A stretch of 63,276 bases of DNA, filler included, from Dimargaris cristalligena (Eukaryota), in NCBI GenBank assembly GCA_003614675.1. It is 10 parts of 10 records of this genome, joined end to end, with 100 filler letters (N's around TTAATTAATTAA, not from the genome) between each part and the next. Parts side by side here need not be neighbours in the genome. Positions count along the whole stretch, not along the records: positions 44,514 to 50,711 come from ML003545.1; 9 more parts are not named here. One strand, 5' to 3'. Shown here one piece after another: positions 5,479 through 63,276 of this stretch (its first letter is position 1; each line of letters opens with the position of its first letter). The translations under genes were made by a program, and so were the position numbers. The notes beneath the pieces were generated by a model. That model was not told the origin of the DNA. It did no database searches and was given only the letters and a program-made list of their open reading frames with translations.

Positions 5479-6301
5479 GCCTGCACAATAATTTATTAAT
5501 AATTTTGATACATAATAGGGGAGGACCAGTAAACTGGTCATGGAAATATGGCTAAAAGAGAAACTGATTTTAAAAGGGGAAAAAAAGAGAAAAGAGAACC
5601 CGCATGCAGCAAAGGGAGAGTGCAGGTGTGGGGTAAGAGGTGAGGGTGGGAGAACCCCAATGGAAATAGAGAATAGATAAGGGAAAAGAGGGCGGCCTGC
5701 AAGGCCGACCAGCCCTATATTGTTCTATTGTCATTGGCCAATAAAGGCGGGGTCCCCTCTAGAAAGGGGGGACACCGTCTCATTATTGATCTTGCGTGGG
5801 ATAGTCCCCCATTGGTTTGGCATTAAACTAGCTGGAAAAGTGTGTCTATGAATAGTGTGCTGCCGTGGGCAGCTGGTCAGAGGCCACGTAAGCCCTAGTA
5901 CACATTACTAATCCAAGAAGTAGCCATACTTTGGATGAATTCAAGGTCCCCGGACGATTGACGAGTTATTTCCATGGGAGTGGTCCGGGGTCATTAATGT
6001 TATTTTATTTTTTTATGCTAGCTGATTCTCTTTTCCTTCAGCTTTCCAAATCATACTTCCATTTGCCTTTCATTCCATTATTGACAAAGTTATAGGTCGT
6101 CAAAGTCAATGACAATTTTAAAACTATGACAATTGACCACCTCATATTACCACTTTTATGCTATGGACGATCCTTTATGAACAGGGCTTGGGAATAACCA
6201 GCCTCGGGCGGATTCCTTCTTGGAATCATGCTATACAATTTCTTAGCATGAATTCCTTTATTTTATCAATATCCGACATGAAGAAGGACTGGGAAGACTG
6301 T

Positions 6302-6401
6302 NNNNNNNNNNNNNNNNNNNNNNNNNNNNNNNNNNNNNNNNNNNNTTAATTAATTAANNNNNNNNNNNNNNNNNNNNNNNNNNNNNNNNNNNNNNNNNNN
6401 N
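6302..6401. other. Artificial contig linker (N44-TTAATTAATTAA-N44); also at 12689-12788, 19070-19169, 25428-25527, 31765-31864, 38090-38189, 44414-44513, 50712-50811, 57002-57101
   Basis: Nine identical 100-bp spacers with stops in all six frames. Segment lengths fall monotonically from 6301 to 6175 bp. Confidence 0.98.
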
Positions 6402-12688: not shown

Positions 12689-12788
12689 NNNNNNNNNNNN
12701 NNNNNNNNNNNNNNNNNNNNNNNNNNNNNNNNTTAATTAATTAANNNNNNNNNNNNNNNNNNNNNNNNNNNNNNNNNNNNNNNNNNNN

Positions 12789-25427: not shown

Positions 25428-25527
25428 NNNNNNNNNNNNNNNNNNNNNNNNNNNNNNNNNNNNNNNNNNNNTTAATTAATTAANNNNNNNNNNNNNNNNN
25501 NNNNNNNNNNNNNNNNNNNNNNNNNNN

Positions 25528-44093: not shown

Positions 44094-44513
44094 GGGTTGC
44101 GAATAGCAAATGGACCACTAGTCAAAAAGTCAATATAGTAAAAAACGGCGAACAGGACTGCAAGCCCATGTAAATTCCTGACATGTACTCAGTGTAGGCG
44201 GTCAGAGGAATCTGCTTTCCGAATGGACTGGGTAGTGGCAGTCGACTTAAACCGGGGGATCCACCTTCAGCCGCAATCAGATTAAATAAACCAACTTCAT
44301 GAAGGACGTAAACGCCACCCCCACCATTTTGGCTCGGTATTCTTTAGAAATATATAATGGGGGGGGGGAAAGGTTAAACCAGGCCATGTAAAGACAAAAC
44401 CCACTTGACAAGGNNNNNNNNNNNNNNNNNNNNNNNNNNNNNNNNNNNNNNNNNNNNTTAATTAATTAANNNNNNNNNNNNNNNNNNNNNNNNNNNNNNN
44501 NNNNNNNNNNNNN

Positions 44514-47500
44514 TCACCGCTGGGTGTGTTGAGACAGCCACAGCTGGCTCCCTTGGTTGGTGACTTGATAATCGTTGTTGCCTCGGTAGTCGTCGCTTGA
44601 GTACCTGTTATCGATAATCAGGGTGTTCCCGCTGATTGAGCCAGCTGTGGCTTTCTCGGGTAGGCAATTAATAATCCTGGCTGCACCGTTTACTTGGAAC
44701 CCTGCTTAATATCCTAGTCGAATCACATGGAGCCAGCTGTGGCTGTCTCAAGTACCTCATTTAAATTAGTGCTGCAGGTTGAATATGAGTTCAGGTCGCT
44801 TCGCTTACAACGCTCGTGACATGGAGCCGCCTATGGCCGTCTCGGGTTAACGGCTAATAATTAACGTTGAGACAGCCACAGCTGGCTCCCTACTATTTAA
44901 TCCTCGCTGCATCGTGAGACAGCCACAGCTGGCTCCCTTGGTGATGGGGTTGATCACGTTGATGAAGCGTTGCAGGTTTAACTGGTATATCATGGTTGCA
45001 CGGTTGACTATAAGCTCAGGGTGGCTCATCAACATAATTCTTGATGAGACAGCCACAGCTGGCTCCTTGTTGGTAACCATTTAAATCAATGCTGCGTTGT
45101 TGAATGAGCTCGATGTCGCTTCGCTTATTAAGTCCGATCGATGGAGCCGACTCTTGGCCGTCTCAGGTTGATGTTGATCCCGATGTTGAGGATGACGGTG
45201 GTGACGACGATGTTGTTGATAACGTTGAAGATGTTGGTGATCCTTGATGATGTCGCTCCGCTCACCAAGTCTAGCCTAGGGAGCCGACTTGTGGCCGTCT
45301 CAGGTAGATTAACAATTCTGGTTGAAGGTGATGATGAGGATGATGACGTCGCTCCGCTTACCACCACCGATTGATTATTAATTCATGCTGCACCGTTGGA
45401 TGAGCAAGAGGTCGCTTCGCTTAACATCACGATTACAAAGAGCCGACTCTTGGCCGTCTCGGGTTGAACCTAACCATCCTTGCTGCGGTTGATGATGACG
45501 ATGATCATAATGTTGACTGGTGATGACTGACCCATGATACCCGAGTCGCTCCGCTTACCACCACTGATTGATTAACAATTCAGGTTGCACCGTTGAATAT
45601 CGATTACTGTTGATTATGTTGGTGAGGGTGATGATGATCATGTTGCTCCTTGATGATGACATGTCGCTTCGCTCACCACTTGAACCTAGGGAGCCGCCTG
45701 TGGCCGTCTCGGGTCATTTACAATCATGGCTGCAGCGGTCTTAGTTAACCCTCTGCAAGGTCGCTTCGCTTAGTGAACCCGTCGATCCTTAGGTTGATGG
45801 TAGTGATGATGATTCCGCTGGCTAACCCGTTGATCGTGATGTCGCTTCGCTTACTGATTCCCGCTGGTTAGCCGCCTGTGGCCGTCTCAGGTAGGTTATT
45901 ATTAATCATGGTTGCAGGTTGGACCCTTGATGCACGAGGTCGCTTTGATTACTGAATCAATCGAGGGGAGCCGTCTCAAGTGGATGACCTAATGACTATC
46001 CTGCGGAATAAGAGCCGCCTGTGGGCGTCTCAGGTTGAATGATTAATCAGTGCTGCACTGTTGAACATAAACTTACTGGTGTTGAGACAGCCACAGCTGG
46101 CTCCTTTATCGGCGACTTTACTAGTCAATGCTTCACGGTTGTTGATGGCGATGATGCTTATGAATTAGGGTAGTGATTAATTAATCCACGATGCAAGGAG
46201 TCGCTCATTTAAATTCAGATTGCCCCGTTGAATTCAAAGTCGCTTCGCTTATCGATGACAATGAAGGTGACCCATGATGCACATGTTGACGGTGACGACG
46301 GTTCTTATCACGATGGCTATGTTGATGAGGGTCCCGCTGATGACTAATCTATGATGCAAGGTCGCTTCGCTCACTGATCTTGGTTACTAGGAGCCGCCTG
46401 TGGCCGTCTCATGTTGATTATTTAAATTGATGCTGCAGGTTGAATAACAAGGAGTCGCTATGCTCACCACTAGTTGTTGAGACAGCCACAGCTGGCTCCC
46501 TTGGTGATGGGGTTGATCACGTTGATGAAGCGTTGCAGGTTTAACTGGTATATCATGGTTGCACGGTTGACTATAAGCTCAGGGTGGCTCATCAACATAA
46601 TTCTTGTTGAGACAGCCACAGCTGGCTCATCTAGTTGAGTACTTATTCACCGCTGCTCGCTGATGAGGTCGCTACGCTTACTGATTACCTAGACTCCTGC
46701 GCACTCCGTTTGCTGACACCTTCAACATCCTAGCTGCACGGTGATCGATGATGCACAGGTCGCTTCGCTTACCTCCACTCCTTCACTCCTCACCCCCGAA
46801 GTCTCGGGGGATCGATCGCTCGTACGTTAACTCTTACAGATTGGTGCTGCACGGTTTCATGGATCATTCGCTGGGTCTAGGCCTGCACGAGGTCGCTTCG
46901 CTCGTAACATTCGTGAGGGGTAACTGGCTCCGCGTTGTGGGGTGGTTCGTGGGTGACTAACGACCTCCGGGTTTATGGCAACGTTACGGTCAGGCACGCT
47001 CCACCCCTCCGGCCCCCCCTTGAAGTTGCGGATTAGGTTCCTCCGATCGACTACCATCGATCTCCGGACCCTAACCTCAACGGGGGGCCTCCCGGGGTTG
47101 CGCTAACACCTGACCTTCACTTCCTCACCTCTGACTGACGCACCTTCGACTTGGGGTATGGTCCAGAAATGGCCCAAATGAGCTTATTTCAATTGAACAT
47201 CAAATGGGTCATTTATTGGGCCATTTCTGGACCTCCATAGACGATTGAATCCAGAAATGGCCCATTTCGATGATCGACCCCTGGACCCCTCGATTGGACT
47301 AAAGGGACCTGGAAATGACCTTCCCGAAGGGCGTGCGATTCGAGGGGACCCCGATTGATTCTGACTCTGAAATGGCTTAATCGCCGGAATGAATTGAACA
47401 TGAATTGGGACGAATTGCGCGAATGGATCAATGGGTGGCGGGTGACCCCCGGTTTTGGGTCACCGAATTGAATTGAGCGGAGATTGAAATAAGGTCATCT

Positions 47501-50500
47501 GGATCCTGGAGGTCGTTTTCACGATTAGAGAGGGCTCCGTATGATACATTTGACATTAATAGTAGTGGTTGCATGGGAGTTGGTAGGGTCATTCGGTTTC
47601 ATTATCACTAACAATTGTGGCTGCACTATTATTTTCAATCGGACGGATATCAGGTGAGGTGTACCGTTTATAGGTAGATCGTGGAGTGGGTCAGGATGAC
47701 GTGTTGGTAGGGTGACTCATTTACAGATCATGGCTGCATAGTTGATTCATCGAACCTCTTGTTTAAACATTACCGTGGACTTGGTCGAGGATTCGCCCTT
47801 GGTTTACTTAGAATGACCCTTATTCGTTATTCTGACGTCGTTATTTTTATCGGGTGGTCCCCAGTTGGTCATATTATTTATAGATCACCGCTGCAGGTTG
47901 TATGAGTACGATGTCGCTTCGCTTGCTAATCGTTATTAAAGGAGCCACCTTGTGGGTGTCTCAGGTGAATGATTAATCCCTGATGCAGGGCTTATTTGAA
48001 TTGATGCTGCACTGGTCTTGAACTCGAGGTCCTTCTTATCAATCGCCGCTGCAGTTTAAACATGAACGAGGGTGATTCTGTTGATGATGAGGGTGATGAC
48101 TGACTCAGGATTAACAGGTCGCTCCGCTTACTAAATTCGTTAGAGGGCGCCGCCTATGGCCGTCGCCGGCCTTGATAATCCTTGTTGAACTTGAGACAGC
48201 CATAGCTGGCTCACCTTGAACCCTTACTAATCCTGGTTGCAGGAGCCAGCTTGTTGCTGTCTCAGGTTGATTATAGATTATTGTTGATCGGTTGGGTGAC
48301 TCATGTTGCACTAGGTCGCTTAACATTACCGATCGGAAGGAGCCGCCTGTGGGCGTCTCGGGTGGAACTTAATCACGGCTGCACCGTTGGACTTCATGGT
48401 GATGACCCCGCTGGCTACCCTTCGACCCGTCCCACCTAATTTAAAGACCTTGGCTGACCGTCCTCACTTATAAGCCTAGAATGATATGACACCCTTACTC
48501 ATGATGATGTTGAGACAGCCACAGCTGGCTCCTCGTTTAACCCTGGACTTCATATCACGAGGCCCCTTTTAATTCTGGGCTAATCCTTGACTGTGGAGCC
48601 GCCTGTGGCCGTCTCGGGTAGATGATTAATAATTCAGGTTGCACTGATCCATGAACAAGATGTCGCTTCGCTTACCATCAAGGATTACAACTGACTGACT
48701 CCGCGTTTATGCTATCCCTACTTCGCTCCTCACCCTCGGGCCCCTACCCCAAAGATTCGATCGCTATCCGTTTACCTACTCTAGACTAACGCTGCACAGG
48801 TCGCTCCGCTCACCAATGACGGTCGAATGAGCCAGCTGTGGCTGTCTCAGGGTGCTTATTTAAATTGATGCTGCACATGTTGAGGGTGACGTTGCTGATC
48901 ACTGATCCATCATGCACAGGTCGCTTCGCTTACTATCACGAATGGAAGGAGCCGCCCATGGGCGTCTCAGGTTAATTATAAATTGATGCTGCACGGTTGG
49001 GTAACTGATGATGTTGATAATGACCGTGACGATTCTGTAGGATGTCGCTTAACGATGATGGAAGGAGCCACCTCGTGGGTGTCTCAGCTAGTCCATTATA
49101 GATTAAGGCTGTGGTTGAATGGGCACGATGTCGCTGCGCTTACTAATCGAGGTTGCAGGGAGCCAGCTTGTTGCTGTCTCATGTGGATGATTAATGATTC
49201 TTGTTGAGACAGCCACAGCTGGCTATTTTGATGATGATGTTGATGCTGTTTATGACGGTTCCGCTGGCTCCTCTTGCTACTAGTCACTCTTCGCTGCATT
49301 GTTGAGACAGCTAGTTGGCTCCCTGGTAATGTTTATGAGTCCCTACTGAAACTTAGTTAATCACCGCTGCATTGTTGATGGTGATGTCCTTGACGTCTAT
49401 TAACGAGTCCTTGAGCTCAATCGTCACGTTGGTTGAGGACCTGGTGACGTCGGTCGTGGTGATGAGCCAGATGTGACCGGCTTGGGTAGCAGGTCGCTTC
49501 GCTTACTATACTGAATGGATTGAGCCACCTCGTGGGTGTCTCGCAACCTGAACCCTGGTTGAATCCACGATTGAGCCAGCTGTGGCTGAATCCTGAAGTG
49601 ATTACCATGAAGGAGCCACCTTGTGGGTGTCTCGCAACTTGTTTACAGTCCGATGTTGAACTGGTGGATAACCCTGTTTATGAACGAGCTGCTAGGGTTG
49701 ATAGTCATGGTGGTCTACAGGTCCCTGCTGATCTTGATGACCTTTGGGTAGATCATAGCGTCCTTCCAGTCAATCGTAATGTCGTTGGGGTCGTTGGTGG
49801 TGTCCTTACTGACTGCACGATACGGCCATAGGCGGCTCCCTTGGCTAATACTATTAACCTCATCATTTAGTCCTTGAATGACCCTCACGACTGCCCCTCT
49901 TATAGACTACGGTTGCACGGTTGACTGAACTTGGAGTCGCTTCGCTTACTAACTGATAATGTAGGAGCCACCTCGTGGGTGGCTCATGTTAATTAATAAT
50001 CGAGACAGCCACAGCTGGCTCCTATTGGTTCAATCATGTAATCTTATCACGGTTATCCTGCTGCTTAATACTACACCGAATCATGTTGACCTCTTAGTCC
50101 TGACTGAACCATTTATTATTGAGCCGCCTATGGCCGTCTAAGCTAACACTTACAGATTAATGCTGCTTGAGACAGCCACAGCTGGCTCTCCCCCTAACCA
50201 TCTTCGTTGGACTTGTTGATGATGTTGATCATTGATCCATGGTGCACGTTGAGCCACCTCGTGGGTGTCTCAGGTGGATTATAAACTAGTGTTGCACGGT
50301 AGAATGTACTCAATGTCGCTTCGCTTGGTAACACCGTTGGAAGGAGCCGCCTGTGGCCGTCTCGGGTTGTAATAGAAATTAATGTTGCACCGTTGAACAT
50401 GAACCCAGTATCGCCCCCTTGTTACTCATTCATCATCCTAACTTGAGACAGCCACAGCTGGCTCCTTTCACTGAACATCATGAATCCTTGCTGCACCGTT

Positions 50501-50711
50501 TCCTACTAGTGATGAACTGCGTTGAGCCAGTTGTGGCTGTCAGGTTGAATCGTTTACTAACACTATCTTATTGAGACAGCCACAGCTGGCTCTATGTGGT
50601 TATCAGGATATCCTTGTAGGTGATAGTGGTGTCCTCATGGTAGACCTTCATGTTCTTCGTAGTCAACGCTGCAGTTGAGACAGCCACAGCTGGCTCCCTT
50701 GTTGAATGTGA
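44514..50711. repeat. Non-coding three-box repeat lattice (box A hairpin GAGC-stem-loop-stem-TCTC; box B GTCGCTNCGCTYA; box C GNTGCA) with variable spacers
   Basis: By manual count about 45 box A and more than 20 box B copies. Box order and spacing are conserved. No credible ORF. Confidence 0.9.
46959..47517. other. Unique multi-hairpin core inside the lattice (putative origin or structured RNA)
   Basis: Closing inverted repeat AACGACCTCC/GGAGGTCGTT, a perfect 18-bp inverted repeat 47160-47177/47216-47233, and several more stems. Confidence 0.65.
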
Positions 50712-50811
50712 NNNNNNNNNNNNNNNNNNNNNNNNNNNNNNNNNNNNNNNNNNNNTTAATTAATTAANNNNNNNNNNNNNNNNNNNNNNNNNNNNNNNNN
50801 NNNNNNNNNNN

Positions 50812-51087
50812 AACAATAGAAGGGATAAAAAGAAAGGGAGAAAGCTATTATTAGCTATTCTTTGAATAGGGGCACAGTCAGGCCAGGGGTAGTGTGAATG
50901 CAGGGGTGCAGTCTGGTCAGGGGCAGGGGTGCATCACAGTCAAGGGTATAAAATATAATAATAGGAAAAACAATATAATAATAAAAATGGAGGAAAAATG
51001 ACTATACTCATCAGGGGCATACTTCTGATAAGTACAAAAAATGGATAAAAAATAAAAGTAAGTAAAAAATGTAGTAAGTTCACCACA
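50812..51087 (-). mobile_element. Partial LTR (family C), truncated by contig start
   Basis: Homologous to 1-209 and ends TTCACCACA. Confidence 0.75.
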
Positions 51088-51967
51088 GACGTCAAGGATT
51101 CAAAGTCGGGGATCTAGTTCTGTTAAAAGACACTCGACTCACCAAAGTCAAGGGTAAACTTTGAGCCTGATGGTGTGGACCCTACATGATAGCCACCATA
51201 GTACATGAAGATGTGTACACCCTCAATGAATTGGATAGTGCAGCATTCAAAGATCCTACTACCAGCATCCACCTACATCATTATTTTAGAGCAGTTTGAA
51301 CCGGGACATTCAAATTCAGCCCCAGGAGATGTACTGCCAAGGGCCAGGGTAATTTCCCTTTCCATGAGACTAACTGGTCACCACACTCCATTCATGATGC
51401 TTGCATACTCTAAATCTGTAGGTTTGCCTTTGTGACAAACAGTGTTCACACTGAGATGAGTGAGTGACATTGATATCTTCCATTTTCCCATATTCTTTTC
51501 TTCCATATTCCACCTTCAAGAATGCCCTGGTGGATCTGAAGCAATTTTGTCTTCTGTTTTCTATATTATTTTTCTTCTGTATCTGACTTTTAAGGAATGC
51601 CTCAGCAGATCTGAGGCAATTTTGTCTTCCATCTTTCCATATATCTTTTCTTTCCCTTTTTACACAGTGTTCAAATTTGAAGAAACAGCTAGTTTTTTCC
51701 CTTCATGGTTTTATGGTTATCAGTCCATCTGAGGATGATGTCCTAAAAGTAGTGGTGTAGCTCTAAGTTCATAGTATCAATTTGCATATATATAGTATCC
51801 CCAGCCAGCCTTTAAAATGGCAAGTTATCTTTGAGATAAGTTTTTATTATTTGGAATAAATATCTATTTTTTAACTTCACCCAGCATCTTACCCAGCATC
51901 AGCCAAGGACTTCAACCGGAAGTTGATTTTTTGTTTTTCTTAATTTTATTATCTTATTTTTAGTACA
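51088..51967 (+). mobile_element. 3' end of a second Ty3/Gypsy element: integrase GPY/F tail plus 3' LTR (family E, 51330-51967)
   Basis: FKVGDLVLL...KL(*)A(*)WCGPY.I, then an LTR with inverted termini TGTACT...AGTACA. Confidence 0.8.
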
Positions 51968-54900
51968 TAGCAACTGTGGCTCCTCCAGCACCTAACTCTG
52001 ATGATGGGAGTGTAGGACCATTCTGCGTGGAATATTTTGCACCATACCCCAGTTCAACCTCTGAGTACAGCTCCGATCCAATCTGCCTAGCTGAAGGGCC
52101 ATGTCCCGAGTTCTCCATGATTTGTCCAGGTGCATAGAGCCCTCCAAACCCAACATCCAGTGACCCTGCCAATCCCGGGGAGGATAAGGGGTCCAACCCC
52201 AGCCTTAGTCCCAGAAGGGAGGGGCCTCAAACCACTGGCCCAACACCTTGCATCAAATTACTTATGTGTTATCTCTTATAAACTTGTCCAAGGTGTAGTC
52301 ATTTAATCATATTAGGGATTATTGCCTATGACAAGGTAATGGAGGGGATTAAGAGCTGTCCTATTCAGATATATATATATATATAATATACAAAGGCGAT
52401 AATTTTTTATTGCTAGTTATTTGAGGATATGGTGGGGTGGATACCCATATGGTTTTGTTTTGGGCCAATAACTTTGGGATGCAGTTCACTGAACCTGTTA
52501 TTAGTATTGTTGATATCTTTTGTCATTGCCACTCTTATATCCATTTTCCTTATAAGGAAACTGACTTCTTAGTAGACAAGGTTAAGAGTGAACATTTTGA
52601 TACTAAAATTGTGCCCAGATTTTGGTATTGGGGGCTATTACGACGAAATTAGCTGTAGAGATACTTTGAAAATTATATGATAATGTTTATTGCAATGATT
52701 TATACTGTGTCGTCAAAAATTATAACCAAGAGCTTGTTAGTATTCAGTATATACGGGTGTGAGAAACTAAGTAATAGTAATTTATTAGTTGCATTGATGA
52801 ACTGGACATAAAATATATAATCAGTGATTGTATTATATTAGGAGGCGAGTAGGACTATTGTCATCTGAGGGTAACTATTAGGGTAGACTGGTGGTTTGTG
52901 TCTATACTGAAGAAACTAATGATCCTAATAGTACTTCTAAGCATATTAGCCAAGGATGGTAGGTAGTTAGTCCATAGGACTAGTATTCCAAGAGGGGGCC
53001 ATAGTCACAGTGTCCTTGAGGGACCAAGTTGGACTTCCTGATAATGTGCCAAGTGTTGCTGCGGTATGGTTTTTCTCAGTTGGCACCCTTGTAGTATCAT
53101 CTGAGGGTTCGACATTCATGGGTAGATAGGGTACCTGTGGCATTCTGGTTGAGTCCCCAGTTTCATAGGATGCCTGGTTAGCATTGGGCGCCCCTGGTGG
53201 TGCAGTATCAACAAGCTCTAGGCTAATGGTTGATCAACCAGTGGGGAATAGATGTGTTATAAAGTATACCGGGATATGAGATGGAGGGGAAAAAGTTCAA
53301 CAGGCAGTGTATATCTCAGGGTAGTTACTGTCACTATAGCTGGGCTAAAAGTAAAGATGGGTGGGTGGGGGTTGGCTCTGATGGCTTGGTCATGATACAT
53401 TGACAATGTCACAGGCAGAGGGATGGAGGTGGTACAAAGGGAGTCCTGGTGACGTGGTTGGACCATTTATTTGTGCAGCCCAAAAATTTTCTTAAGCTAG
53501 ATTAATATCATAATAGGAATAAGTGAACAAACATAGAAACACATTGTTAGAAATTGGCCTACATATCATTCAGTAAGTACAAAATGATTTATCAGAATAT
53601 CATTTGGAAGCCATTCGTTAATTAATCAGCATAATGAAAATTGGGTGTTATCTTTCATTGAATGGAGACATCACTGTTACATTAGTGCACTCATTGGCAA
53701 GGCAGATAGTAAAATAGGGAACATTGTCTTTTATTATATCACTTCTGATAGTTATATACAGCCGACATAGTATAAATACAATTACTGGCCCGCCTAAACT
53801 TCACAATATAAATAAAAATATGTAATATAATAAAACTTACCATATTGAAAGCCCACTTAACGGGTTTTACGATTGGCACTCTGGGGTCGGCGGTAGGATA
53901 ATCCCTACCAGGCCGATTCTTCTTGAATATAATGTTTATGGAAAATGCCATTTGGTTATAAAGCGTAGCAATTTTGTGTTTTGCTGATAGCTTTAGGATG
54001 AGAAAAAACCACAGTTTTTATACCTGGTGAAAACACACCACCCAGTCGAGGGAAGTGTTAGCTTAAGCCTAACAACACAATGAAAACCAATGGAAATCCC
54101 CAACTACAGGAAAACAGCAGACATCCCAATGCTATGCACAAACTATGGCCATTGTCACCGACCTGGGTCATATGGAAGGCAAACATTATGCTCCCAAATG
54201 GCCATTATTGTCCACAGTTCTGCTTCCGATGCCAAATCCTCCTTACCAGCAAAGGGAATACAGCAGTAAGATTATTAGATGTGGTTTATTTCACACACTG
54301 AATAACAATAGTACTATCTATTCATGATTAGGCCTGACAATGGCCACACCTTTCTAACTAAGCCCAATTATGAAGGTTACAGGCCTAGTGCCTTTACAAG
54401 TGCCGATTCCTCATAATTAGCTATTCCCAGGAGATGGTAGGTCTTCACCGAAGATGGTGAACTCCACCCATATGTAGATGTACCCACCTTCCTGAACAGC
54501 TCCACAGCAATCAAGAGTACTATTGGTATTATCCTAATAACTTCGATTAGTAGAAAAAAAAGTGCACTATAATATCCCATCTCCCCCTTCCATACAATAT
54601 TTTTTTCCTTTATGGATATTCCCTTGTTGGCGCATTCCCCTTCCTCCCATCCATTATAGTAAAATAACCGTGTATAAAAATATTGTTATTGTTCCTTCGA
54701 GGTATAGTCCCAGATAGCCCTATTCGGCGCAAGTTAATGTCATTACCGGAGTTTGGGCTGTTTCGGGATGTCAAAAGCTGCCTTCTACCATTAAAGATTC
54801 ATGTTTCTATGCAATACGAGTACTACTGTATATTACCATTCACCCATTTATATGTGGATATGTCATACGAGAGGAAATCAGCCTGACTTGACGGCTCTTG

Positions 54901-55993
54901 GCCCTCTGCTTTCAATATCCCCAAATTTATGCATTGGATTCCCTTGGCACGGGACATTGTGTAACGCCATGTTAAACATAATAGTAGATATATCCAAAGA
55001 ATAAACTGGGCGACATACCGCAATCTCGGGAATCTCATCGCTTATGTGCATGCCATAGTTGAATATTTAATTAATTATTTGAATATGTAGCTGGTCCACT
55101 GATGCAGTTAATTTGACCATGTCATGAAGTCCTTTCTGTTTGGGGGGTAACTAAGATTCACTGTGACCAGATTATATGTTTCCTAATGGTGATATTCTTC
55201 CCTGTATAAGCCTTCATCAGCCGAGGACTATTTGTTGTATTATTAAGCCAATTGGTACATATTTGTATTGTTACTTAGGTTTTTACTTCAAAGACTGCCC
55301 AATTTTGTCTCCGTCAGTACATTCTGTTACTCCAATAAGCCTACACATGTAATACTGGGACCAGAATGACAGGGGGAATCCATGTCACCTTGTCAGGTGA
55401 GGAGAAAGAAGACTCTGATAGTGATATTAGCCCAAAAGGCTGTTGGATTCTGGAAATTGGAGGCCGATGAGAAGATGTTTCCAGTGATAATGTATTTGCC
55501 GGAGAGATGGTCCAATAATGGGATTAACTAAACAGTGTTTTTGGCAGGTAATATTTGTTATTATAAAAGAGAAATTCGAATGAACCTTGTAAAGTTAAGT
55601 CAATAGTTGCGGACTCGAGAAACTGCTTCTGCTGGTGAACCAGCAGAAGTGAAGTTGATGATAATTGGCCTCTTGAGACCACGATAGGCTTTATTTCACC
55701 AGATTTAATGTGTGATGTAAATGGTTTTTTGTAAAAGACGAATCCTTACCTTGGCAGGTTATATGTACTGCTGCTCTAGTCCGGGACATACCCTCCCTTT
55801 TCTTCCTTGGACTTTTTATGAGCAATAAGCACTAAGTTTACTAATACCTAAATTTGTAATTGAATTCAATAAGCAATTAACTAAATCAACCATCCTATAC
55901 TTATTGAAGTAGATTAATACTAAATACTAATATTTCTGGGTGGGCTTACAAATTATATTAAATGGGATATTATCATCAACTTCACTTACACTG

Positions 55994-56575
55994 TGTTGGA
56001 TCTTCTAATCTAACCTAATCCAGCTGGCTTAGTACTCGACAACCCTAGGCCTTATAGTGCCATATTAACCCTCCCATAGTCACCCCCAGTACTATGGGTC
56101 ATTATTTATATATATAACCCTACCCCTTGTGACCCCAACACCTTGCACCCCAAACAATCCACTTGCTGATCCAAGACCCTTCCAGTTCCCATGGGAGTCT
56201 TCCTAGTATGAAGCCATCCAGTTGGTCCCTTTACCTATTTGTACCTTAGCCTTAGTAGTATTTACCTTGGAACCTCCCTCTGGAGTTGTCCCCATATATA
56301 TAACTAGGCCCTACTGGGACTGGTTCAATTCCTTAGCTTATTACTATCCCTTAGTTTACCTCAATAAACTCTATATAAACTCACCCCCCCCTTATACTGA
56401 CCAGTAAGTGTACACTGCTACATGTCCCTTGCATAGTTACCACACTTGCCCCTATTGGGTTAGTACCACCCCATACCTGATACTAGTAGCCACTTAGCCG
56501 AGCCTAAGCCCACCTACTATTAGAAGCCTACCCCCAGGACTCTTAACAGACTAAGAGTAGATAATTTAGGTGACA
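55994..56575 (+). mobile_element. LTR family A copy, no TSD
   Basis: TGTTGG...GGTGACA, colinear with 4664-5478. Flanks CACTG/AATAT do not match. Confidence 0.88.
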
Positions 56576-56942
56576 AATATGATGGTCAATGCAGGTACCT
56601 TCAAATGCAATTGTAAAGATTTAAAGAAGAGAGAAAGAACCACAAGGGGCAAAGCTAGATGCCCACAGTTGGTTTAATTGTATTGGAAATAGCAGTAATG
56701 ATGATAAAAATGTTGTTCTGAGTATAGGATGATACAATCATAGATAGAGAATAGTCCCAGGTATTAGGATGGACCAATCAGAGTAAAGGATTTGGAGGGG
56801 CGGGAGAAATGAATTTCCAACACTTTTCACTAGCCCATTATAATAAGTATTTTTTAATTTCATTTACTATAGTAGCCTTAGTGTGTTGCCAACAATTTGA
56901 GGGCCTCTGCTGGTTTGCCTTTGGGAGAGTCGGTAGGAGGGG

Positions 56943-57001
56943 TGTGGTGAACTTACCACATTTTTTACCTACTTTTATTTTTATCTATTTTTCGCACTTA
57001 T
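56943..57001 (+). mobile_element. Start of an LTR family C copy after a polypurine tract
   Basis: GGTAGGAGGGG then TGTGGTGAACTTACC..., the reverse-complement homolog of 150-209. Confidence 0.7.
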
Positions 57002-57886
57002 NNNNNNNNNNNNNNNNNNNNNNNNNNNNNNNNNNNNNNNNNNNNTTAATTAATTAANNNNNNNNNNNNNNNNNNNNNNNNNNNNNNNNNNNNNNNNNNN
57101 NCAAGTATCAATTTCACTTCTGATACTTGTGAGATCACTCTCCCTAATGGGATGTCCTTTTATGCAGGGGCATATACACATACATATATCATAAAAATGA
57201 GGTATCCTGGACAAAATTTCACCCCCAAAGCCCTAATTTCAAAGGAAAATTCAATTCAACAGGCCCATATCAACTTAGGCTATGTTAATTATCCCTTCCT
57301 GATTCAGGTAGCCAAGTCTAGCCTACTGCCAGGTGTTGATTTAACCACTTCCAAGGGTATCTAACCCTGTGAAACTTGTTTAATTAACAAGGCAACTCAC
57401 CTACCCTTCTCTGGCAGGCTGGACCCTATGTTCTCTATACCGGAGGTAATTCACACTGATGTAGCTGGCCCCATGCCAGTCAGAATAATGAAAGAACAAT
57501 ACTACTTTGTCTCTTTTATTGACCAGTTTTCAAGAATGGCTTATATCAGTTTGATTAAATATAAACCTGATGTACCCCAGGCACTGGACTAGTATTTAAA
57601 GTATATGAATAATCAGTTTAGTAAATTTCCCAAAGAAATTTATTCTGATAATAGTGGTAAGTACATCCCCCATCAATTTGCTACTATCCTCAGGGAATAT
57701 GGAATTACTCATTCCACTACTGCACCTTACTCCCCTCAACAAAATGGTATTACTGAAAGGTTCAATCGAACTGTTCACTCCACTGTAAAATGTATGCTTA
57801 ATGAAAAGGGTATACCCAAATCCCTTTGGGGGGAAGCCCTTCTGGCCACTACCATAATTTAGAATAGGATTCCAAGTCCTAAAATT

Positions 57887-58108
57887 TGTTGGAATACTAA
57901 GGATGTAAAGAAAATAAAACTGGAAGTAAGGGAAGAAAGTAGCTAGAGGACAGTAGGTGCCTCTAGGTGGTTAGTTTTATTAAACTGTAATTTCAATGGG
58001 GTGAAATATAAGTGGCTAACATAAATGATCTCATGATAGCTGAATAAACTAACATAATTGGGTGAAACAGGATAAGATAAAGAACACATAGGAATATATT
58101 CTTCAATA
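57887..58108. mobile_element. 222-bp solo-LTR-like insert (family B) in the Copia integrase
   Basis: TSD AAATT (57882-57886, 58109-58113). Termini TGTTGGAA...CTTCAATA. Confidence 0.9.
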
Positions 58109-59081
58109 AAATTAGTGATGACACTCCCCATTTATGCTGGTATGGCTAACTACTAGATCTTACATGACTTCACCAGTTTAGGTCCAAGGCAATTATCAAA
58201 ACCAACAATCATCACTCCCAAAAGTTACAACCAACTTCAAAGAAGCTCCTCTACATGGGGCTAACTGCCAACCTGAAAAACTATAAGTTTTTTGACCCCC
58301 AGTCAAACAAGGTCATTGTCAGTCATGATGCATATTTTTTGTCTAATTCCCTGGCTTCCTGGACTCCAGAACAGCCATCCCCATCAAAAACCATCCAGAA
58401 TCAAGCCCAGAATACCTCCAGTTGCTAATTTTACCTCCCTGATGAGGATTCAGGCTTAAATTTGCCTATTCATGCATCCCATGCATCTCATGCACCTCCT
58501 GTAGTAGTGATTGTACCTACGACAATGGATATTTCTAACTAATCCAACTATAGTTCTGAAATTTATCCAGTAGTATCCACTGCACCCCAGGTCATTAATA
58601 TAAGTAATCTTAGTATGGAATTAAGCCCACATACTTTAAGTGGTATCCCTGTAGACCTAAATCTTGATCCAAATGACTGGGAACTTGAATCTGAACTAAG
58701 GAATCCAATATCACCCATCAGGTCCCTGTACCTATCCAATTTAACTACAGAACACCTGTCCCTGGCCCCCAGGTTATTCCCTTAAAAAAGAATCATTCCA
58801 AAAGGTCAAAACAACTACAATTGGTGACTCCGTGACTGTCCAAATGTATCTGTGGCATTCCTCCCTCTCCCTCTCCCAACCCCAATACTCCTTCCAATTT
58901 AGCTTTTCTGGCCATGGATGGTCCACAGTCATACTCCCTGGCCATGAAGGATCAGTTCCATAAGGAATGTCAGTCAGCCATTGACCTTGAACTCAAGTCT
59001 ATGGCTGAAAATAAAGTCTGGGACTTAGTACCTCATCTAAAAAAACTCCAAAGTTTTACCCTATTACTGGGTTTTTATTAT

Positions 59082-59663
59082 TGTTGGCCCTCCTAATCTA
59101 ACTTAATCCAGACCTAAAGAGTGCCCACCCTTATTAGGCCTTATAGTACCATATTAACCCTCCCATAGTTACCCCTGGTACTATGGGGCCATCATTTATT
59201 ATATAACCCCACTCATTCTAACCCCAATGCTTTGCACCCCAAACACTCAACTTACCAATCCAAGACTCTTCCAGTTCCCATGAGAGTCTTCCTGATGCAA
59301 AGCCATCCGGTTGGGCCCTTTACCTATTTGCACCTTAGTCTTAGTCATATTCCCCTTGGGACCTCCCTCTGGAACCATCCCTGCATATATAACTGGGCCC
59401 AATGGGGCCTGGTTCAACTCTTTAGCTTATTCATATCCCCCAGTTTACCTCAATAAACTCCATATATACTCATCCCCTTGTACTAACTAGTAAATGTGCC
59501 TACTGCATGTCCCTGACATTTACCTGCATCTGTCCTCTATTAGTTAGTACTATGTCCCCATCCTAACAATAGTAGCCTGCTTGGCAGAACCTAAGCCCCA
59601 CCTACCATTAGAAGCCTATCCTTGGGACTCTTGATGGACTAAGAGTAGTTAATCTGGGTGACA
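59082..59663 (+). mobile_element. Solo LTR family A in the Copia RT
   Basis: TGTTGG...GTGACA with TSD ATTAT/ATTAC (one transition). Splits the WVF.TK motif. Confidence 0.92.
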
Positions 59664-60181
59664 ATTACCAAGTGGCACCCTGATGGTACTATTGAGCATT
59701 ACAAGGCCCAACTAGTTATCAAGGGATTCCATCAGCATGAAGGAATTGACTATAATGAAGTATTTGCACCTGTAGTTCACTACTCTAGCATCAGGATTCT
59801 CTTAGCACTTACTACCAAGTACTAACTTTTTATTTATCAAATAGATGTACAAACTGTGTTTTTGAATAGCAAAATTGATAAAGAAGTTTTTATTGAACCT
59901 CCTGAGGGATCCCAGATCCCCAAACACTCTGTCTGCAAGCTTAACCATAGTCTGTATAGACTCAAGCAATCTCTAAGACTCTGGAATTAAACACTTGATG
60001 AGTTTTTGCTGTCTTGTGACATTTTAAAGTGTGAACTTGATCATAGTATTTATGCCAGGATTCAAGGAAACCTATGTACATACCTAGCTATATATGTTAA
60101 TGACATTCTTATTGTCTCATCTGAGCTTTCTGGCATGGATTAGGTTAAATAACAACTCAATGCCAGATTCCCAATGACTGA

Positions 60182-60765
60182 TATTGGCCCTTCTAATCTA
60201 CCTTAATCTGGACACTATGCTATCCACCCTTATTAGGCCTTATAGTACCATAATAACCTTCCCATAGTCACCCCTGGTACTATGAGATCACCCTATAGTA
60301 TATAACCCTTCCCCTTCTGGACTCTGCCTCTTTATACTAATCACCCAAGTGCTAATCTGGGGACTCTTCCAGTTACCATCAGAGTCTTCCAGATACTAGC
60401 AGCCATCTGGTCAGCTTAATTACCTATACCTTAGTCTTAGTAGTATTTTATCCTTGGGACCCCCCTCTGGAGTTGTCCCTGTATATATATAACCATGCCC
60501 CATTGGGACCAGTTAGATTCCTTAGCTTATCCTTACCCCCTAGTTTACCCCTAATAAACCTTATATATACTCACTCCCCTCATACTAACTAGTAAGTGTG
60601 CCCACTGCATATCCCTTACCTTTACCTGTACTTAGCCTTTATCAGTTAGTATCATGTCCTGTACCTGATGCCAGTAGCCCACGTGGCCAAGCCTAAGCCC
60701 TGCCTACTATTAAAAGCCTATCCGCAGGACCCTTGTGAGACTTAGAGTGGTTAACCCAGGCAACA
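60182..60765 (+). mobile_element. LTR family A copy terminating the Copia RT remnant
   Basis: TATTGGCCC...GGCAACA, colinear with the other A copies. Copia sequence does not visibly resume afterwards. Confidence 0.88.
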
Positions 60766-61163
60766 GTTGAAAAATATGACTTCCAATGAATAGGTCACTA
60801 TTAGTTTTCCTCTGTAGGATGCAAATATCTTTTGTGTGCCCTCAGACATAGTATGAATACTAATTATATTGTAATAATATAAAAAACCCAATGTAATATA
60901 AATCTGATAAATGTTTTCAATGACAATATGCTAACAACTTAATAACTGTAATGTTATTAAATGTGGCAATGATATAATAAAATTTGACATCATAAATGTT
61001 GACAGGACAAAAGCAAACTAAATATTGAATAAAAAATGGATTGAGTAGGACGTGATATTAATAAATGATAGTCAATAATAGGATGCTGGATGGTCCTTAA
61101 TATGTCATAATCGTCAAACTGCTGTATTGTACGAAGTGAAAGTAAGCCCTGATCTATTGAAAG

Positions 61164-61451
61164 TTATTTTTTTTTGCCAAAAATATGTGGAACCTTTGTA
61201 CCTAAAGTAGATAGTTTATTACCCACTTTTTTTACAACATTGGAGGCAGCACCCTTAAACCTTTGACTTTTGGATTTGGGGAGTTGGGGTTTGTTGGGAG
61301 CGGGGGGATGTTCTAGGGCCCATAAATTAGGGTATTTTTCACGACGTTGGGCATCATAGGCAGCATTTTCCTCCTTGGTTATTTGGCCTTCCGATTGGAT
61401 AATGATGGCTATGACAACAAGCGAAACGGCAAACATGGATGAAAGCTTCAT
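61164..61451 (-). CDS. Small secreted protein (95 aa) with Lys-rich amphipathic C-terminus
   Basis: ATG at 61451 gives signal peptide MKLSSMFAVSLVVIAIIIQSEG. TATATAAA at ~61645-61652. Confidence 0.8.
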   Translation of the reverse strand: MKLSSMFAVSLVVIAIIIQSEGQITKEENAAYDAQRREKYPNLWALEHPPAPNKPQLPKSKSQRFKGAASNVVKKVGNKLSTLGTKVPHIFGKKK

Positions 61452-63276
61452 TTTCAAGGGGCAGTGAAGGAGTGAGAAAAGTTTGGAAAAATAGGAGAAG
61501 TTGGTCACAGTAGGGTTGGTTGACTAATATGCTAAGTAATAAAGCTGATGGAAATAAAAGTAGGGGGTTTCGATGATTAAATATGGAATCAATGAAATGA
61601 AGGTTGGTGAAATGATGATGTGAAGTAGGGTGGTCACCGCACGCTTTATATATGTAATATGGTGACCATCATCTCGTTCCAGCTACAGCGATGGACTCAA
61701 CAAAACCATTTTCCCATTTACGTGGGCCAGTTTACCCCTGTCCGCTGGGTAAATGATGAGCAATCCCGCTACTTCTGTGTGCGTTGCCGCTGTTCCACCA
61801 GAACAAAGAATATCTAGGGGATCGGTTCAGTTCTGCGGAGATACGAAAACCCGATTTAAAAGAAGGGCTTTATTGGTTGAAAATCAATTTCTGGTTGATT
61901 ATCATATTTGCATATCACCTGAATGCAAATGCGGCTGTTTTGGGTTTCGTCTCATGCCCGAGTGTAAGTTGGAGAGTCGCCCTATCCAATTCGTTGAAAA
62001 GAGATTCAACTTTCTCGCATTCAACGCGAGCACCATGTTTTTAAGGATTTACTTCCTTGTTCTTAGAAGAGTTAAAGGCAAGTGGGGCATTAAGTCGAAA
62101 AAATAGGAAGGCAGTAGATCTCGTATCGTCTTCCATTAATAATACGAAGAAGGGGATACAACCTGAATATCGGGAGGATAACACCCCATTTGTTCCGCTT
62201 GGCCATTGCCAGTAGTTCTTGAGGATAGACGAATGTCCAACATCTAGGCAATCCTCCCCTCCCTCCATCTTGTATTGCCGCTGGGTTCCGGTTTTACGGC
62301 ACTAAGTTTAGACATACACGTGAAAGCGGCGGGCTCCTTTTCAGGGTGCCGTGGTTCATGTGGTAGTGTTAAAAACGGGATTGAACGAGTGTAGAAGTAT
62401 TTAGGAAGCTAGCTTTATTATTATTAGCGGCCCCAATAGGGTGTGAAGATTAATGTAGCGATTGTAGGAAATGAAAGTAAACGTATGGGAGTAATAGTCA
62501 TCTGCGGATCCGTCTCTGGGTTGGCCAACTGTTCCTTTCTATGCTGGTATAACTCAAGAACCATGTATGCGCATATAGCCTTGGATGGTGCTCCCGGGTG
62601 GTTCGTACTATTCCTATGGTCTGGACGGACAGTCAGTATCCTTGCATAGCCTTCAGGATGAGTCGGGGGTAGTGGAGGAGAAGATACCATCGGAGGTCCA
62701 GCTGGATGCCTGACTATATGCACTGTCTGCTTGTCGCTGGGTACACCTGGCGCTGCAATATTAACAGTAGCATCCCCCGGCTGACCGTGACATTACTGTT
62801 AGCCGGGTTGAAGGAAACACGGTTTGTGGGGGTGAACATAGGCAGCAGTGCTTCGTTCATTGCTGCCAGCTATTTTACAAGTTCATAGTCCTATCGCAAT
62901 AATCATCTGTTTATTCATATGTTTATATATGTAGGAAAACGCGCGACATCATTGCACTGTGAAGTGAATCATTCGGTCCTTTCTGTCGTGGCATTTGCGA
63001 CGAGAGTTCACCGAAAAATAAGCTACAACCCAAATACTTTTATATTCCAATTTACATGACACACATCCAATTAACGGTATAAAACCCCCATAATACAAGG
63101 CTTTTTAAATAAATTGATATTTCCTTAGTCGACGCTGATTGTATCCGAAGGTCGGGAATATTCTTCAATATCCACCATTCCTCAGTTTCATTTGACATAA
63201 TAAATGAAATACGTGCCAATTGTTGAATTCATTGCACAACCCACCACCTAGGCTGAAAGCTGAGCAGTACACCTTG

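Follow-up and report, generated by a model that had tools for sequence, protein, structure and literature searches.

The contig at positions 44514–50711 of the window, a 63,276-nucleotide stretch of Dimargaris cristalligena DNA, is real, non-coding and very abundant DNA in which three short conserved boxes, A, B and C, lie at fixed distances. The most plausible explanation is that it belongs to a high-copy sequence family, contains no genes and is a mosaic of short modules, not a homogenised tandem repeat. More tentatively, and with confidence somewhat short of even, we take the boxes to form a family of short hairpin repeats, dispersed and specific to one lineage, that fills a multicopy or foreign replicon where genes are sparse.

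Organization of the contig

The window comprises 10 unrelated contigs of ~6.2–6.3 kb each, joined via N...TTAATTAATTAA...N spacers. As these joints are artificial, the neighbours of 44514–50711 in the window provide no genomic context. The stretch itself is one complete contig, a mosaic of boxes A, B and C:

44514–50711, no strand assigned: entire contig (6198 bp), bounded at either end by an artificial N/TTAATTAATTAA joint, box mosaic without coding sequence
44514–46780, plus strand: left box array, every B and C on the plus strand, A in both orientations
46780–47900, no strand assigned: central stretch with few boxes, dividing the array into two
47900–50711, plus strand: right box array, B and C oriented as in the left array

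The central stretch contains an 18-nt perfect inverted repeat (47160–47177 / 47216–47233), a further 17-nt inverted repeat (47011/47073) and two direct copies of TCCAGAAATGGCCCA, at 47162 and 47250, to which the arm 47217–47231 of the first inverted repeat is complementary.

There is no coding signal. The longest ORF spans 113 amino acids, and stop-codon reassignment did not yield a frame spanning the contig (longest 546 amino acids with TAG as sole stop, otherwise 258). Among the 39 inter-box segments, 17 are open on the plus and 23 on the minus strand, compared with shuffle values of 19.7 and 20.3. The contig neither carries a gene, an rRNA or a tRNA nor is linked to one, and it matched no tRNA, phage, plasmid, GTDB or metagenome sequences.

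Three boxes at fixed distances

The arrangement of the boxes is exemplified by the following features:

48920–48933, plus strand: box B, one of 23 copies (first at 44795, last at 50315)
48934–48948, plus strand: B-to-A spacer, 15 nt, poorly conserved
48949–48968, plus strand: box A, one of 27 forward copies, a 20–21-nt imperfect palindrome with outer GAG/CTC and an inner 4-bp stem
48969–48993, plus strand: AT-rich TTAAT/TATAAAT-like stretch with box C (GCTGCA, 48988–48993) at its end, 39 nt after the start of A
44869–44889, minus strand: inverted box A of the A2 type, one of 16 inverted copies
45165–45251, plus strand: GAT/GTT-rich tract occupying an A-to-B interval, with several frames open on both strands, no more than shuffles allow

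All 23 copies of box B (GTCGCTTCGCTTAC, up to two mismatches) reside on the plus strand and none on the minus strand, while box A (GAGCC..GTCTC) was aligned from 27 copies in forward and 16 in inverted orientation. For the inverted 21-mer GAGACAGCCACAGCTGGCTCC there are 15 matches with at most one mismatch in the whole window, every one of them inside 44514–50711, where 0 would be expected by chance (100 shuffles). The presence of box A in both orientations and its own palindromic nature are absent from the original prediction.

The original prediction of a B, A, C order with fixed spacing was borne out by comparison with 2000 random placements of the boxes. Box A starts 28–30 nt after B in 15 of 23 cases, and exactly 29 nt after it in 11 (random mean 0.30, maximum 3). 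C follows A by 38–42 nt in 14 of 27 cases (random 1.0, maximum 6), and C precedes B by 22–26 nt for eight of 49 C-like hexamers, by 24 nt in six (random 0.9, maximum 5). The boxes and their fixed distances are thus far beyond chance. Copies of A without B are frequent, and eight of the 23 B copies lack an A at 28–30 nt. The proposed 93–95-bp unit holds locally (B to B 91–98 bp, four cases; A to A 92–94 bp, three cases), but the lattice is not periodic overall, and the suggested nine helical turns do not represent a general period. Tandem Repeats Finder did not detect a tandem array in the contig, which is therefore not an ordinary homogenised satellite.

The DNA between the boxes is far less well preserved than the boxes and their distances. 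For 15 canonical units, mean pairwise identity amounted to 0.894 for B, 0.366 for the 13-nt spacer and 0.326 for the 24 nt upstream, with a null of 0.254 ± 0.013. The notion that the spacers differ every time goes too far: they are poorly conserved (0.37) but not unrelated (chance 0.25), and this weak but significant similarity indicates that the units share ancestry. Pure copy-and-paste would have copied the spacers as well, so that the difference between 89% identity for B and 37% for the spacers requires selection or conversion limited to the boxes.

Box A as a hairpin and its foldback modules

Stem pair 6:15 of box A is G-C in eight, A-U in six and unpaired in none of 14 distinct 20-mers. 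The covariation score was 0.246 for the 20-mers (0.128 when shuffled) and 0.210 for the 21-mers (0.091 when shuffled), and none of 500 shuffles scored as high in either case. These values indicate that the box A stem is preserved through compensatory changes. Of the "protein-binding or folding scaffold" originally envisaged, the folding constraint is real for this box.

An inverted A lies 37–49 nt downstream of a forward A in five of 27 cases (random 0.9, maximum 4), and opposed copies 45–49 nt apart create foldbacks of ~66–70 nt. When eight modules were folded, z fell below −3.4 in five. Complete modules (B, spacer, A, loop, inverted A) and a duplicated segment are found at:

44795–44889, plus strand: complete module, predicted stem of ~20 bp, RNA fold −38.6 kcal/mol, z −3.7
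48118–48213, plus strand: complete module, weaker predicted pairing, z −0.87
49130–49226, plus strand: complete module, z −5.1
49936–50022, plus strand: complete module, z −3.5
44915–45065, plus strand: 151-nt segment, two inverted A boxes with 109 nt between them, copy 1, family D15
46478–46628, plus strand: 151-nt segment between two direct inverted A boxes, copy 2, family D15

The two copies of the 151-nt segment are 99% identical and have unrelated flanks. Among the 16 inverted A copies, 13 show no difference over 20 nt, as might be seen after recent copying. No target-site duplications were seen around the modules when the flanks were judged by eye.

Abundance, variants and composition

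K-mer depth, which is not copy number, was 3646–5288 in public run X1 and 603–1000 in public run X3, with eight unique pieces of the contig in each run. Of the contigs of run X1, 4008 of 240,313 lie on it, and of those of run X3, 4921 of 212,529; some 4000–4900 variant contigs share the boxes. More than 1270 joints were reported, and in many of them the boxes are the same but the letters of the spacer are not. The depth of the contig relative to the box bins differs ~6-fold between the two runs. The contig occurs under three organism labels, and independent contigs of three studies agree with its sequence at every position over up to 1534 nt. In one run, a copy of the central stretch has diverged, by 17 differences and two gaps in 655 nt. 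Its dinucleotide signature deviates from that of the nine other contigs (TA 0.79 versus 0.98–1.06, CC 0.99–1.09 versus 1.27–1.49, GA 1.1 versus 0.84–0.89) and does so even with the boxes masked. The very high, sample-dependent depth and the deviant dinucleotides would fit the organellar or extrachromosomal replicon originally considered, or a foreign one.

Evaluation of possible explanations

If the contig belongs to a family of dispersed hairpin repeats, box A would be its key module, forming a hairpin when DNA or RNA is single-stranded. The family would reside where genes are sparse, either on a multicopy replicon (organelle, plasmid-like or accessory DNA) or in a genome foreign to the other contigs, and its modules would spread and reshuffle by copy-and-paste or by recombination at the boxes, the duplicated 151-nt segment with its two identical inverted A boxes being a possible example. 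A copying or binding machinery would read a hairpin together with a second site at a set distance, and the boxes would stay alike because they are read in this way, much as the ends of single-strand transposons of the HUH type are, while the linkers would drift freely. In IS200/IS605 elements and at Helitron 3' ends, a subterminal hairpin is recognised in single-stranded DNA, the cleavage or joining site lies at a fixed distance from it and the linker is unconstrained. The contig resembles this layout but differs in that no transposase, element ends or target sites were found and the modules are packed one way. Several points speak against the hairpin-repeat explanation. The 89% identity of boxes and 37% of spacers fits a binding lattice or RNA genes equally well, neither target-site duplications nor a transposase or recombinase were seen, it is unusual for dispersed selfish repeats that B and C should point the same way along 6 kb, and 6.2 kb without a gene is long even among bloated organelle DNA.

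The fixed distances, free linkers and uniform orientation of B and C across 6 kb would also suit a complex satellite of the nucleus or a lattice for protein binding (in centromeric or pericentromeric DNA or on an accessory chromosome), in which A, B and C are candidate binding sites at set helix distances and the rest drifts. High depth and thousands of box-sharing variant contigs agree with this, and the abundance of variant relative to family differs among samples of one organism label, as in satellite variants. We nevertheless consider it unlikely, as no tandem array was detected, unit length varies, and the dinucleotides differ from those of nine nuclear-like contigs even with masked boxes; moreover, the changes in A preserve base pairing and not half-site sequence, which favours a folded single strand over a duplex binding site. 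Distinctly less probable are autonomous mini-genes for ~50-nt RNAs on the plus strand, with B as putative 5' handle, a putative 15-nt variable guide and A as 3' hairpin and, at the same time, as an element upstream of the following unit. The AT-rich TATAAAT/TTTAAAT-like stretch with box C, ~20–35 nt upstream of B, would act as promoter. Scaffold-like conservation (handle 89%, middle 37%), the rigid 29-nt geometry, a hairpin with compensatory changes, the AT-rich stretch at a set distance ahead of C and B and the very large repertoire of units with different spacers between the same boxes argue for such genes. On the other hand, no Rfam family reached its gathering score and the hits at E up to 5 were no better than chance, complementarity of the spacers to the 63 kb, a very small target set, did not exceed that of shuffles (mean longest match 8.9 versus 9.1), A and B often occur apart, and at 15 nt the variable stretch is short for specific guiding. 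Arrays of guide RNAs (kinetoplastid minicircle gRNA cassettes, CRISPR, TIGR) likewise frame short variable stretches with conserved, in part inverted, repeats, and minicircles form very high-copy families of many variants whose class abundance varies between samples. The universal minicircle motif has 12 nt and is absent from the contig, the period of which, unlike that of CRISPR, is irregular. TIGR arrays possess two 8–12-nt repeats, 9-nt spacers and a Tas gene, none of which the contig matches (PMC12045711).

A decayed or heavily interrupted gene, in which introner-like or MITE-like insertions (B..A or B..C on the plus strand, GTAAG..TGCAG on the minus strand) split the exons for a repetitive protein in dozens of places, appears very improbable. 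On the minus strand B starts with GTAAG and C ends with TGCAG, some plus-strand B..A units run from GT to CAG, and minus-strand translation of some inter-box pieces gives beta-strand-like peptides. Open frames in the 39 inter-box segments are, however, no commoner than in shuffles, box frames vary between units, seven A copies end in CTCGG instead of CTCAG, and GTTGCA, the sequence of roughly every second C box, reads CAA and not CAG on the minus strand. A homologue search with the 102-amino-acid frame gave one candidate and none at E up to 10, and short skips are absent among the joints listed, 1263 others lying outside this list. Hardly credible, finally, is an artefact, be it an assembly error or contamination with synthetic or laboratory DNA, for instance a barcode or a cloning construct. 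Its presence under three organism labels and, on reading the sequence by eye, type IIS and PstI/PvuII recognition sites in some boxes point in this direction. They are opposed by the identity of independent contigs from three studies, by the diverged central stretch of one run, which looks like natural variation, and by the compensatory changes within boxes.

Comparison with known repeat families

The original prediction knew of no described element with this grammar, and none emerged from our searches, which took in Rfam and tRNA, phage, plasmid, GTDB and metagenome sequences but no general eukaryote nucleotide database. The closest kinds, in our reading, are the REP/BIME/REPIN elements of bacteria and the short, dispersed palindromes by which organelle genomes of green algae are bloated. 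REP elements are imperfect palindromes of 20–35 nt in both orientations, which the HUH-type enzyme RAYT mobilises. Two of them lying inverted across a short spacer form a foldback, and the elements are clustered, non-coding and numerous. Box A resembles them in all these structural respects, being palindromic, present in both orientations, paired into foldbacks, clustered, non-coding and numerous. The contig differs in lacking bacterial gene context and RAYT, in adding two oriented boxes at fixed distances and in being gene-free over 6 kb, and the exact A 21-mer is absent from 185,579 GTDB species genomes.

GC-rich (~50%) palindromic repeats fill and fragment organelle assemblies in Haematococcus and Stephanosphaera (PMC7235400), and Lobosphaera mtDNA contains lineage-specific palindromes with compensatory changes (PMC4524435). 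The repeats of Volvox, Haematococcus, Stephanosphaera and Lobosphaera share with the contig lineage-specific hairpins of ~50% GC in high-copy non-coding DNA and fragmented assemblies, and the stems of Lobosphaera HyLIMP (LIMP/HyLIMP) resemble box A, compared by description only, in their compensatory changes and GAGCC unit (PMC7235400; PMC4524435; PMC2670323). These accounts do not describe a three-box grammar with fixed distances, and the contig has no linked organelle gene. In Boodlea (Cladophorales), the plastid hairpin plasmids are long global palindromes of 1–7 kb, whereas all B and C boxes run one way along 6.2 kb, so that the contig is not a global hairpin. The likeness lies in abundant, gene-less, low-molecular-weight plastid DNA of high GC content with six conserved 20–35-bp motifs in conserved orientation (bioRxiv 10.1101/145037).

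Conserved boxes at fixed distances in a single contig

The 6198-bp contig at 44514-50711 carries three short conserved motifs, termed boxes A, B and C. Of box B (GTCGCTTCGCTTAC, up to 2 mismatches), there are 23 copies along the whole contig, every one on the plus strand, and box A (GAGCC..GTCTC) is present in 27 forward and 16 inverted copies. Inverted box A (GAGACAGCCACAGCTGGCTCC, up to 1 mismatch) yielded 15 matches in the 63-kb window, all within this contig, with 0 expected from 100 shuffles. Distances were evaluated against 2000 random placements. Box A follows box B by 28-30 nt in 15 of 23 cases (exactly 29 nt in 11; null 0.30, maximum 3), box C follows box A by 38-42 nt in 14 of 27 (null 1.0, maximum 6), and for 8 of 49 C-like hexamers the next box B is found after 22-26 nt (null 0.9, maximum 5). 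Among 15 canonical units, box B copies have a mean pairwise identity of 0.894, the spacers one of 0.366 and the upstream stretches of 24 nt one of 0.326, compared to 0.254 +/- 0.013 for random segments. The original prediction of boxes in the order B, A, C at fixed distances is borne out: they are real, are kept far better than the intervening DNA, and their distances recur far more often than in random placements. The finding as such is real and statistically solid. The spacers are indeed variable, as had been claimed, but they are still weakly homologous to each other, which had been overlooked.

A basic unit of 93-95 nt had also been proposed. It recurs a few times but is not general, B-to-B and C-to-C distances being irregular. 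Tandem Repeats Finder returned 7 rows across the window and none within 44514-50711, in agreement with the earlier view that the contig is not a homogenised satellite. With no such array and only sparse recurrence of the 93-95-nt unit, the architecture is a mosaic and not a periodic satellite. Classical satellites and minisatellites run head-to-tail with constant unit length and copies alike throughout the unit. This class was rejected on the basis of the missing array, the irregular distances and the fact that boxes are 89% but spacers 37% alike.

Box A is a hairpin maintained by compensatory changes

Box A is an imperfect palindrome of 20-21 nt with an outer GAG/CTC, a C/T mismatch, an inner stem of 4 bp and a loop of 4-5 nt, a feature that had gone unnoticed in the original prediction. 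Across 14 distinct A 20-mers, pair 6:15 always forms, as G-C (8) or A-U (6), and pair 7:14 is G-C six times, C-G twice and open in the other six. For the 20-mers, covariation scored 0.246 versus 0.128 for shuffled sequences, with none of 500 shuffles as high, and the score dropped in all slid registers. The six distinct 21-mers behaved likewise (0.210 versus 0.091, 0/500 as high). The stem of box A is thus kept by compensatory changes. Inverted copies are nearly all of one variant (13 of 16 identical across 20 nt); forward copies, i.e., those preceded by box B, are diverse. An inverted A lies 37-49 nt downstream of a forward A in 5 of 27 cases (null 0.9, maximum 4).

The recurrent full module comprises about 95-105 nt and consists of B, 15 nt, A and an AT-rich loop, often with C, followed by inverted A:

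44795-44889, full module
48118-48213, full module
49130-49226, full module
49936-50022, full module

Upon RNA folding, five of eight modules tested gave z values of -3.5 to -5.1; the remaining three gave -0.9, -1.6 and -1.8. A piece of 151 nt with an inverted A box at either end is present twice with 99% identity and unrelated flanks (44915-45065 and 46478-46628).

There is also a second type of module, in which A is replaced after B by a C-rich stretch, a short G/C hairpin and GATCGATCGC-like palindromic DNA, followed by box C:

46772-46850, second module type
48676-48795, second module type

Base 46802 within it is polymorphic and is covered by 24 contigs from two sequencing runs with a summed depth of about 60,000, so that this type, too, is repeated within the family.

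A box-poor stretch at about 46780-47900 divides the box mosaic in two. It contains an 18-nt perfect inverted repeat and a 15-mer used three times, twice directly and once inverted. At 47160-47264, the 18-nt inverted repeat encloses a 38-nt loop, and its 15-nt core TCCAGAAATGGCCCA recurs behind it as a direct copy. This iteron-like cluster could be a candidate control or origin region. As read by eye, further, weaker look-alikes may lie downstream, none of them in the output of the repeat search.

The contig belongs to a large and very abundant family

The contig is present in six public DNA sequencing runs from three studies with three organism labels. Depths and contig counts were derived from Logan contigs for four of these runs. 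Note that contig depth does not equal copy number.

Representation of 44514-50711 in four public DNA sequencing runs (depth of eight listed pieces; run contigs falling on the contig out of all)
X1, depth 3646-5288, 4008/240313
X3, depth 603-1000, 4921/212529
X5, depth 2.7-8.7, 293/183543
X6, depth 2.6-5.9, 211/127953

In box-rich bins, depth rises to 124,000 in X1 and 144,000 in X3. More than 1270 joints were recorded in the runs, and among those listed, boxes of distant units are linked, often with 8-31 other letters between them. The listed joints represent additional units that combine the same boxes with different spacers, in part at twice the depth of this contig. Given such units and their high depth, the contig belongs to a large family of very high abundance; the share it contributes varies about six-fold between two samples with the same organism label. 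Hardly any of the contig's words occurred in four further runs from these samples or studies, which is no proof of absence. Pieces as long as 1534 nt recur unchanged in another study, and in one run the central stretch is present in a diverged form (17 differences and 2 gaps across 655 nt). Hence the sequence is a natural one, not an artefact of assembly.

The window comprises ten separate contigs of about 6.2-6.3 kb, sorted from longest to shortest and joined by runs of N around TTAATTAATTAA:

6302-6401, 12689-12788, 19070-19169, 25428-25527, 31765-31864, 38090-38189, 44414-44513, 50712-50811 and 57002-57101, N/TTAATTAATTAA joints

Since 44514-50711 is exactly one of these contigs, its neighbours in the window are uninformative about genomic context. 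The other nine share a dinucleotide signature with CC/GG over-represented at 1.27-1.49, TA at 0.98-1.06 and GA at 0.84-0.89. For 44514-50711 the values are CC 0.99, TA 0.79 and GA 1.10, and they stay deviant when the boxes are masked (TA 0.79, GA 1.09, GC 0.76). The boxes are absent from the other 57 kb of the window, and blastn-short of the contig against this part retrieved only GAT-microsatellite matches. On compositional grounds, the deviant dinucleotides together with the confinement of the boxes point to another compartment or another organism than that of the nuclear-like contigs.

Tests for coding capacity and known RNAs

The longest stop-free frame in the contig spans 113 aa, and no stop-codon reassignment or alternative genetic code opens a contig-spanning frame. 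Box reading frames change from unit to unit. Minus-strand translation of some inter-box pieces gives beta-strand-like peptides. Open frames in the 39 inter-box segments occur at shuffle level (17 on the plus and 23 on the minus strand versus 19.7 and 20.3). When a 102-aa frame across several boxes was searched against 5.8 billion predicted proteins, a single candidate was retrieved and none at E <= 10. On the minus strand, B starts with GTAAG and C ends with TGCAG, which gives an intron-like look; this resemblance fails because many A boxes end with CTCGG and many C boxes read GTTGCA. Spliceosomal introns and introners need GT..AG borders and a frame restored on removal, a combination not seen here.

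In an rDNA intergenic spacer, rRNA genes (18S, 28S or 5S) would lie inside or in the flanks. At gathering score, Rfam detected no family in the window; at E <= 5, there were 10 matches in the contig (E 0.024-4.3), all far under the cut-offs and none of rRNA type. ARAGORN found no tRNA. A box C/D snoRNA was rejected as CTGA follows B in only about 5 of 23 units (by reading), a spliced-leader relic as the resemblance to a dinoflagellate leader is confined to a short hairpin, and a RIP-mutated repeat as CpA/TpG is retained in the boxes. Complementarity of the spacers to the 63 kb of the window is at shuffle level.

Comparison with known systems

Exact searches for the inverted A 21-mer came up empty in JGI metagenome contigs, in GTDB genomes and in IMG/VR. 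With a gapped B..A pattern, single matches (3 + 2) turned up in contigs of soil metagenomes and Acidobacteria; they were taken as chance because each of these contigs contains only one B. The contig had no blastn match among PLSDB plasmids and INPHARED phages. In the searchable literature, the box sequences returned nothing but one unrelated primer match, and concept searches returned analogies only, the comparison of sequences covering those given as text. Within these plasmid, phage, GTDB, metagenome, IMG/VR, protein and literature searches, the finding is unmatched.

CRISPR arrays have one repeat of 23-47 nt, a regular period and unique spacers of near-constant length, usually with cas genes nearby; the contig has three different boxes, an irregular period, box A both ways and no ORF above 113 aa. 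TIGR-Tas loci reportedly combine two alternating 8-12-nt repeats, 9-nt spacers and 36-nt units with an adjacent gene for a Nop-domain Tas protein (PMC12045711). Here, boxes measure 14 and 20-21 nt, the spacer 15 nt and units about 50-100 nt, with no accompanying ORF. Kinetoplast minicircles are characterised by the 12-nt universal minicircle sequence, located in a conserved region; this sequence (up to 2 mismatches) is absent from the contig and occurs twice elsewhere in the window versus 7.1 expected by chance. Cladophorales-type hairpin plasmids are molecules made of one long imperfect palindrome; all 23 B boxes reside on one strand, and the inverted repeats of the contig are box-sized only. 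MITEs are dispersed and have terminal inverted repeats and target-site duplications. The inverted A pairs resemble such terminal repeats as foldbacks; no target-site duplication was seen by eye at the flanks of the 4 complete modules, and the remaining 57 kb contained no dispersed copies.

Short dispersed hairpin repeats, such as bacterial REP/BIME/REPIN elements, are the closest known kinds, a likeness judged by described traits. REP/REPIN and organelle palindromic repeats reside in bacterial or organelle genomes, REPs having a cognate RAYT-type enzyme, and are short imperfect palindromes with maintained pairing, both orientations, inverted doublets and many non-coding copies. The contig shares the traits of sequence and arrangement: the A stem shows compensatory changes, A boxes are numerous in forward (27) and inverted (16) orientation, doublets occur at 37-49 nt (5 versus 0.9 expected), depth is high, related contigs number in the thousands and there is no coding signal. 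Also among the closest kinds are palindromic repeats of green algae, lineage-specific and GC-rich, which occupy non-coding DNA of organelles and shatter assemblies in Haematococcus and Stephanosphaera (PMC7235400) and show compensatory changes in Lobosphaera (LIMP/HyLIMP; PMC4524435), as well as gene-less, motif-bearing plastid DNA of low molecular weight in Boodlea (bioRxiv 10.1101/145037).

Interpretation

The contig combines a hairpin box with compensatory changes, two further boxes that are oriented and keep a fixed distance to the hairpin, very high abundance, many variants and no coding. Because short dispersed hairpin repeats come nearest to this combination, we read the contig, tentatively and with somewhat less than even confidence, as a new family of such repeats whose home would be a multicopy or foreign replicon; most likely, it is a mosaic of lineage-specific hairpin repeats on a high-copy replicon. 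The repeats would spread and be reshuffled via copying or recombination at the boxes, which fits the 151-nt duplicate framed by two identical boxes and the uniformity of the inverted copies. By analogy with the ends of HUH single-strand transposons, where the same protein recognises a hairpin and another site some fixed distance away, a single protein may read the A hairpin and a second site, leaving the linker free; such recognition would be expected to keep B and A at a constant distance, as observed, while the linker varies. The hairpin-repeat family does not explain well why boxes are 89% but spacers 37% alike and why B and C keep a single orientation over 6 kb.

Both observations also fit a functional lattice, and a nuclear protein-binding satellite is conceivable though unlikely. 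Distinctly doubtful is an array of mini-genes for small RNAs, in which an AT-rich/C promoter would precede a constant handle, 15 variable nt and a hairpin at the 3' end. An elaborate version, which we regard as a long shot, takes the contig as a chromosome or segment of a multicopy replicon made up mainly of a huge repertoire of tiny autonomous RNA genes of about 50 nt (AT-rich/C promoter, B handle, 15-nt guide, A hairpin), the inverted A boxes serving as recombination sites for cassette shuffling; it would constitute a eukaryote-associated guide-RNA system outside kinetoplastids. That a decayed gene is riddled with insertions is very improbable, as inter-box frames are open no more often than in shuffles, and an artefact or contaminant is hardly credible in view of the pieces recurring identically in another study and the diverged natural copy.

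If units were transcribed as defined small RNAs or bound by a segregation protein, they would represent a novel type of guide-RNA or partition locus on a high-copy eukaryotic or organellar replicon. Even as a selfish hairpin-repeat family only, the contig is an unusually clean case of three boxes and their distances being kept while linkers decay, and the fixed hairpin-to-box distance provides an experimental entry point to the enzyme or binding protein reading the repeats. The probable residence in a foreign genome or another compartment matters for annotation of the assembly.

Further features of the window

Among 10 ORFs from the other contigs, Pfam recognised RVT_1 and two sub-threshold matches, nothing else. 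CpG is strongly depleted in three contigs, with observed/expected ratios of 0.11 (1-6301), 0.27 (50812-57001) and 0.34 (57102-63276), a pattern expected of cytosine methylation and deamination of repeats. The first of them encodes the Ty3/gypsy-type reverse transcriptase (RVT_1, E 5.8e-13), a piece with relatives at up to 63% identity, none of them informatively named. An orphan ORF had no protein-atlas match when taken as 446 aa and no homologue when taken as 449 aa. Three frames were noted:

19989-21404, minus strand, open frame of 471 aa with a signal-peptide-like start
38192-38593, plus strand, at a contig end, likeness to the C-terminal portion of an NRPS condensation domain (PF00668; 23.1 bits, below the cut-off of 30.6), weakly hinting at a fungal or other NRPS-bearing host
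14015-15223, minus strand, Q/N/P-rich open frame of 402 aa

The 471-aa frame had no homologue at E <= 0.001 among 8000 scored candidates and no protein-atlas match, and looks like a putative orphan secreted protein. The 402-aa frame, which matched no Pfam family, includes a 114-bp tandem duplication at 14267-14491 (2 copies, 90% matches).
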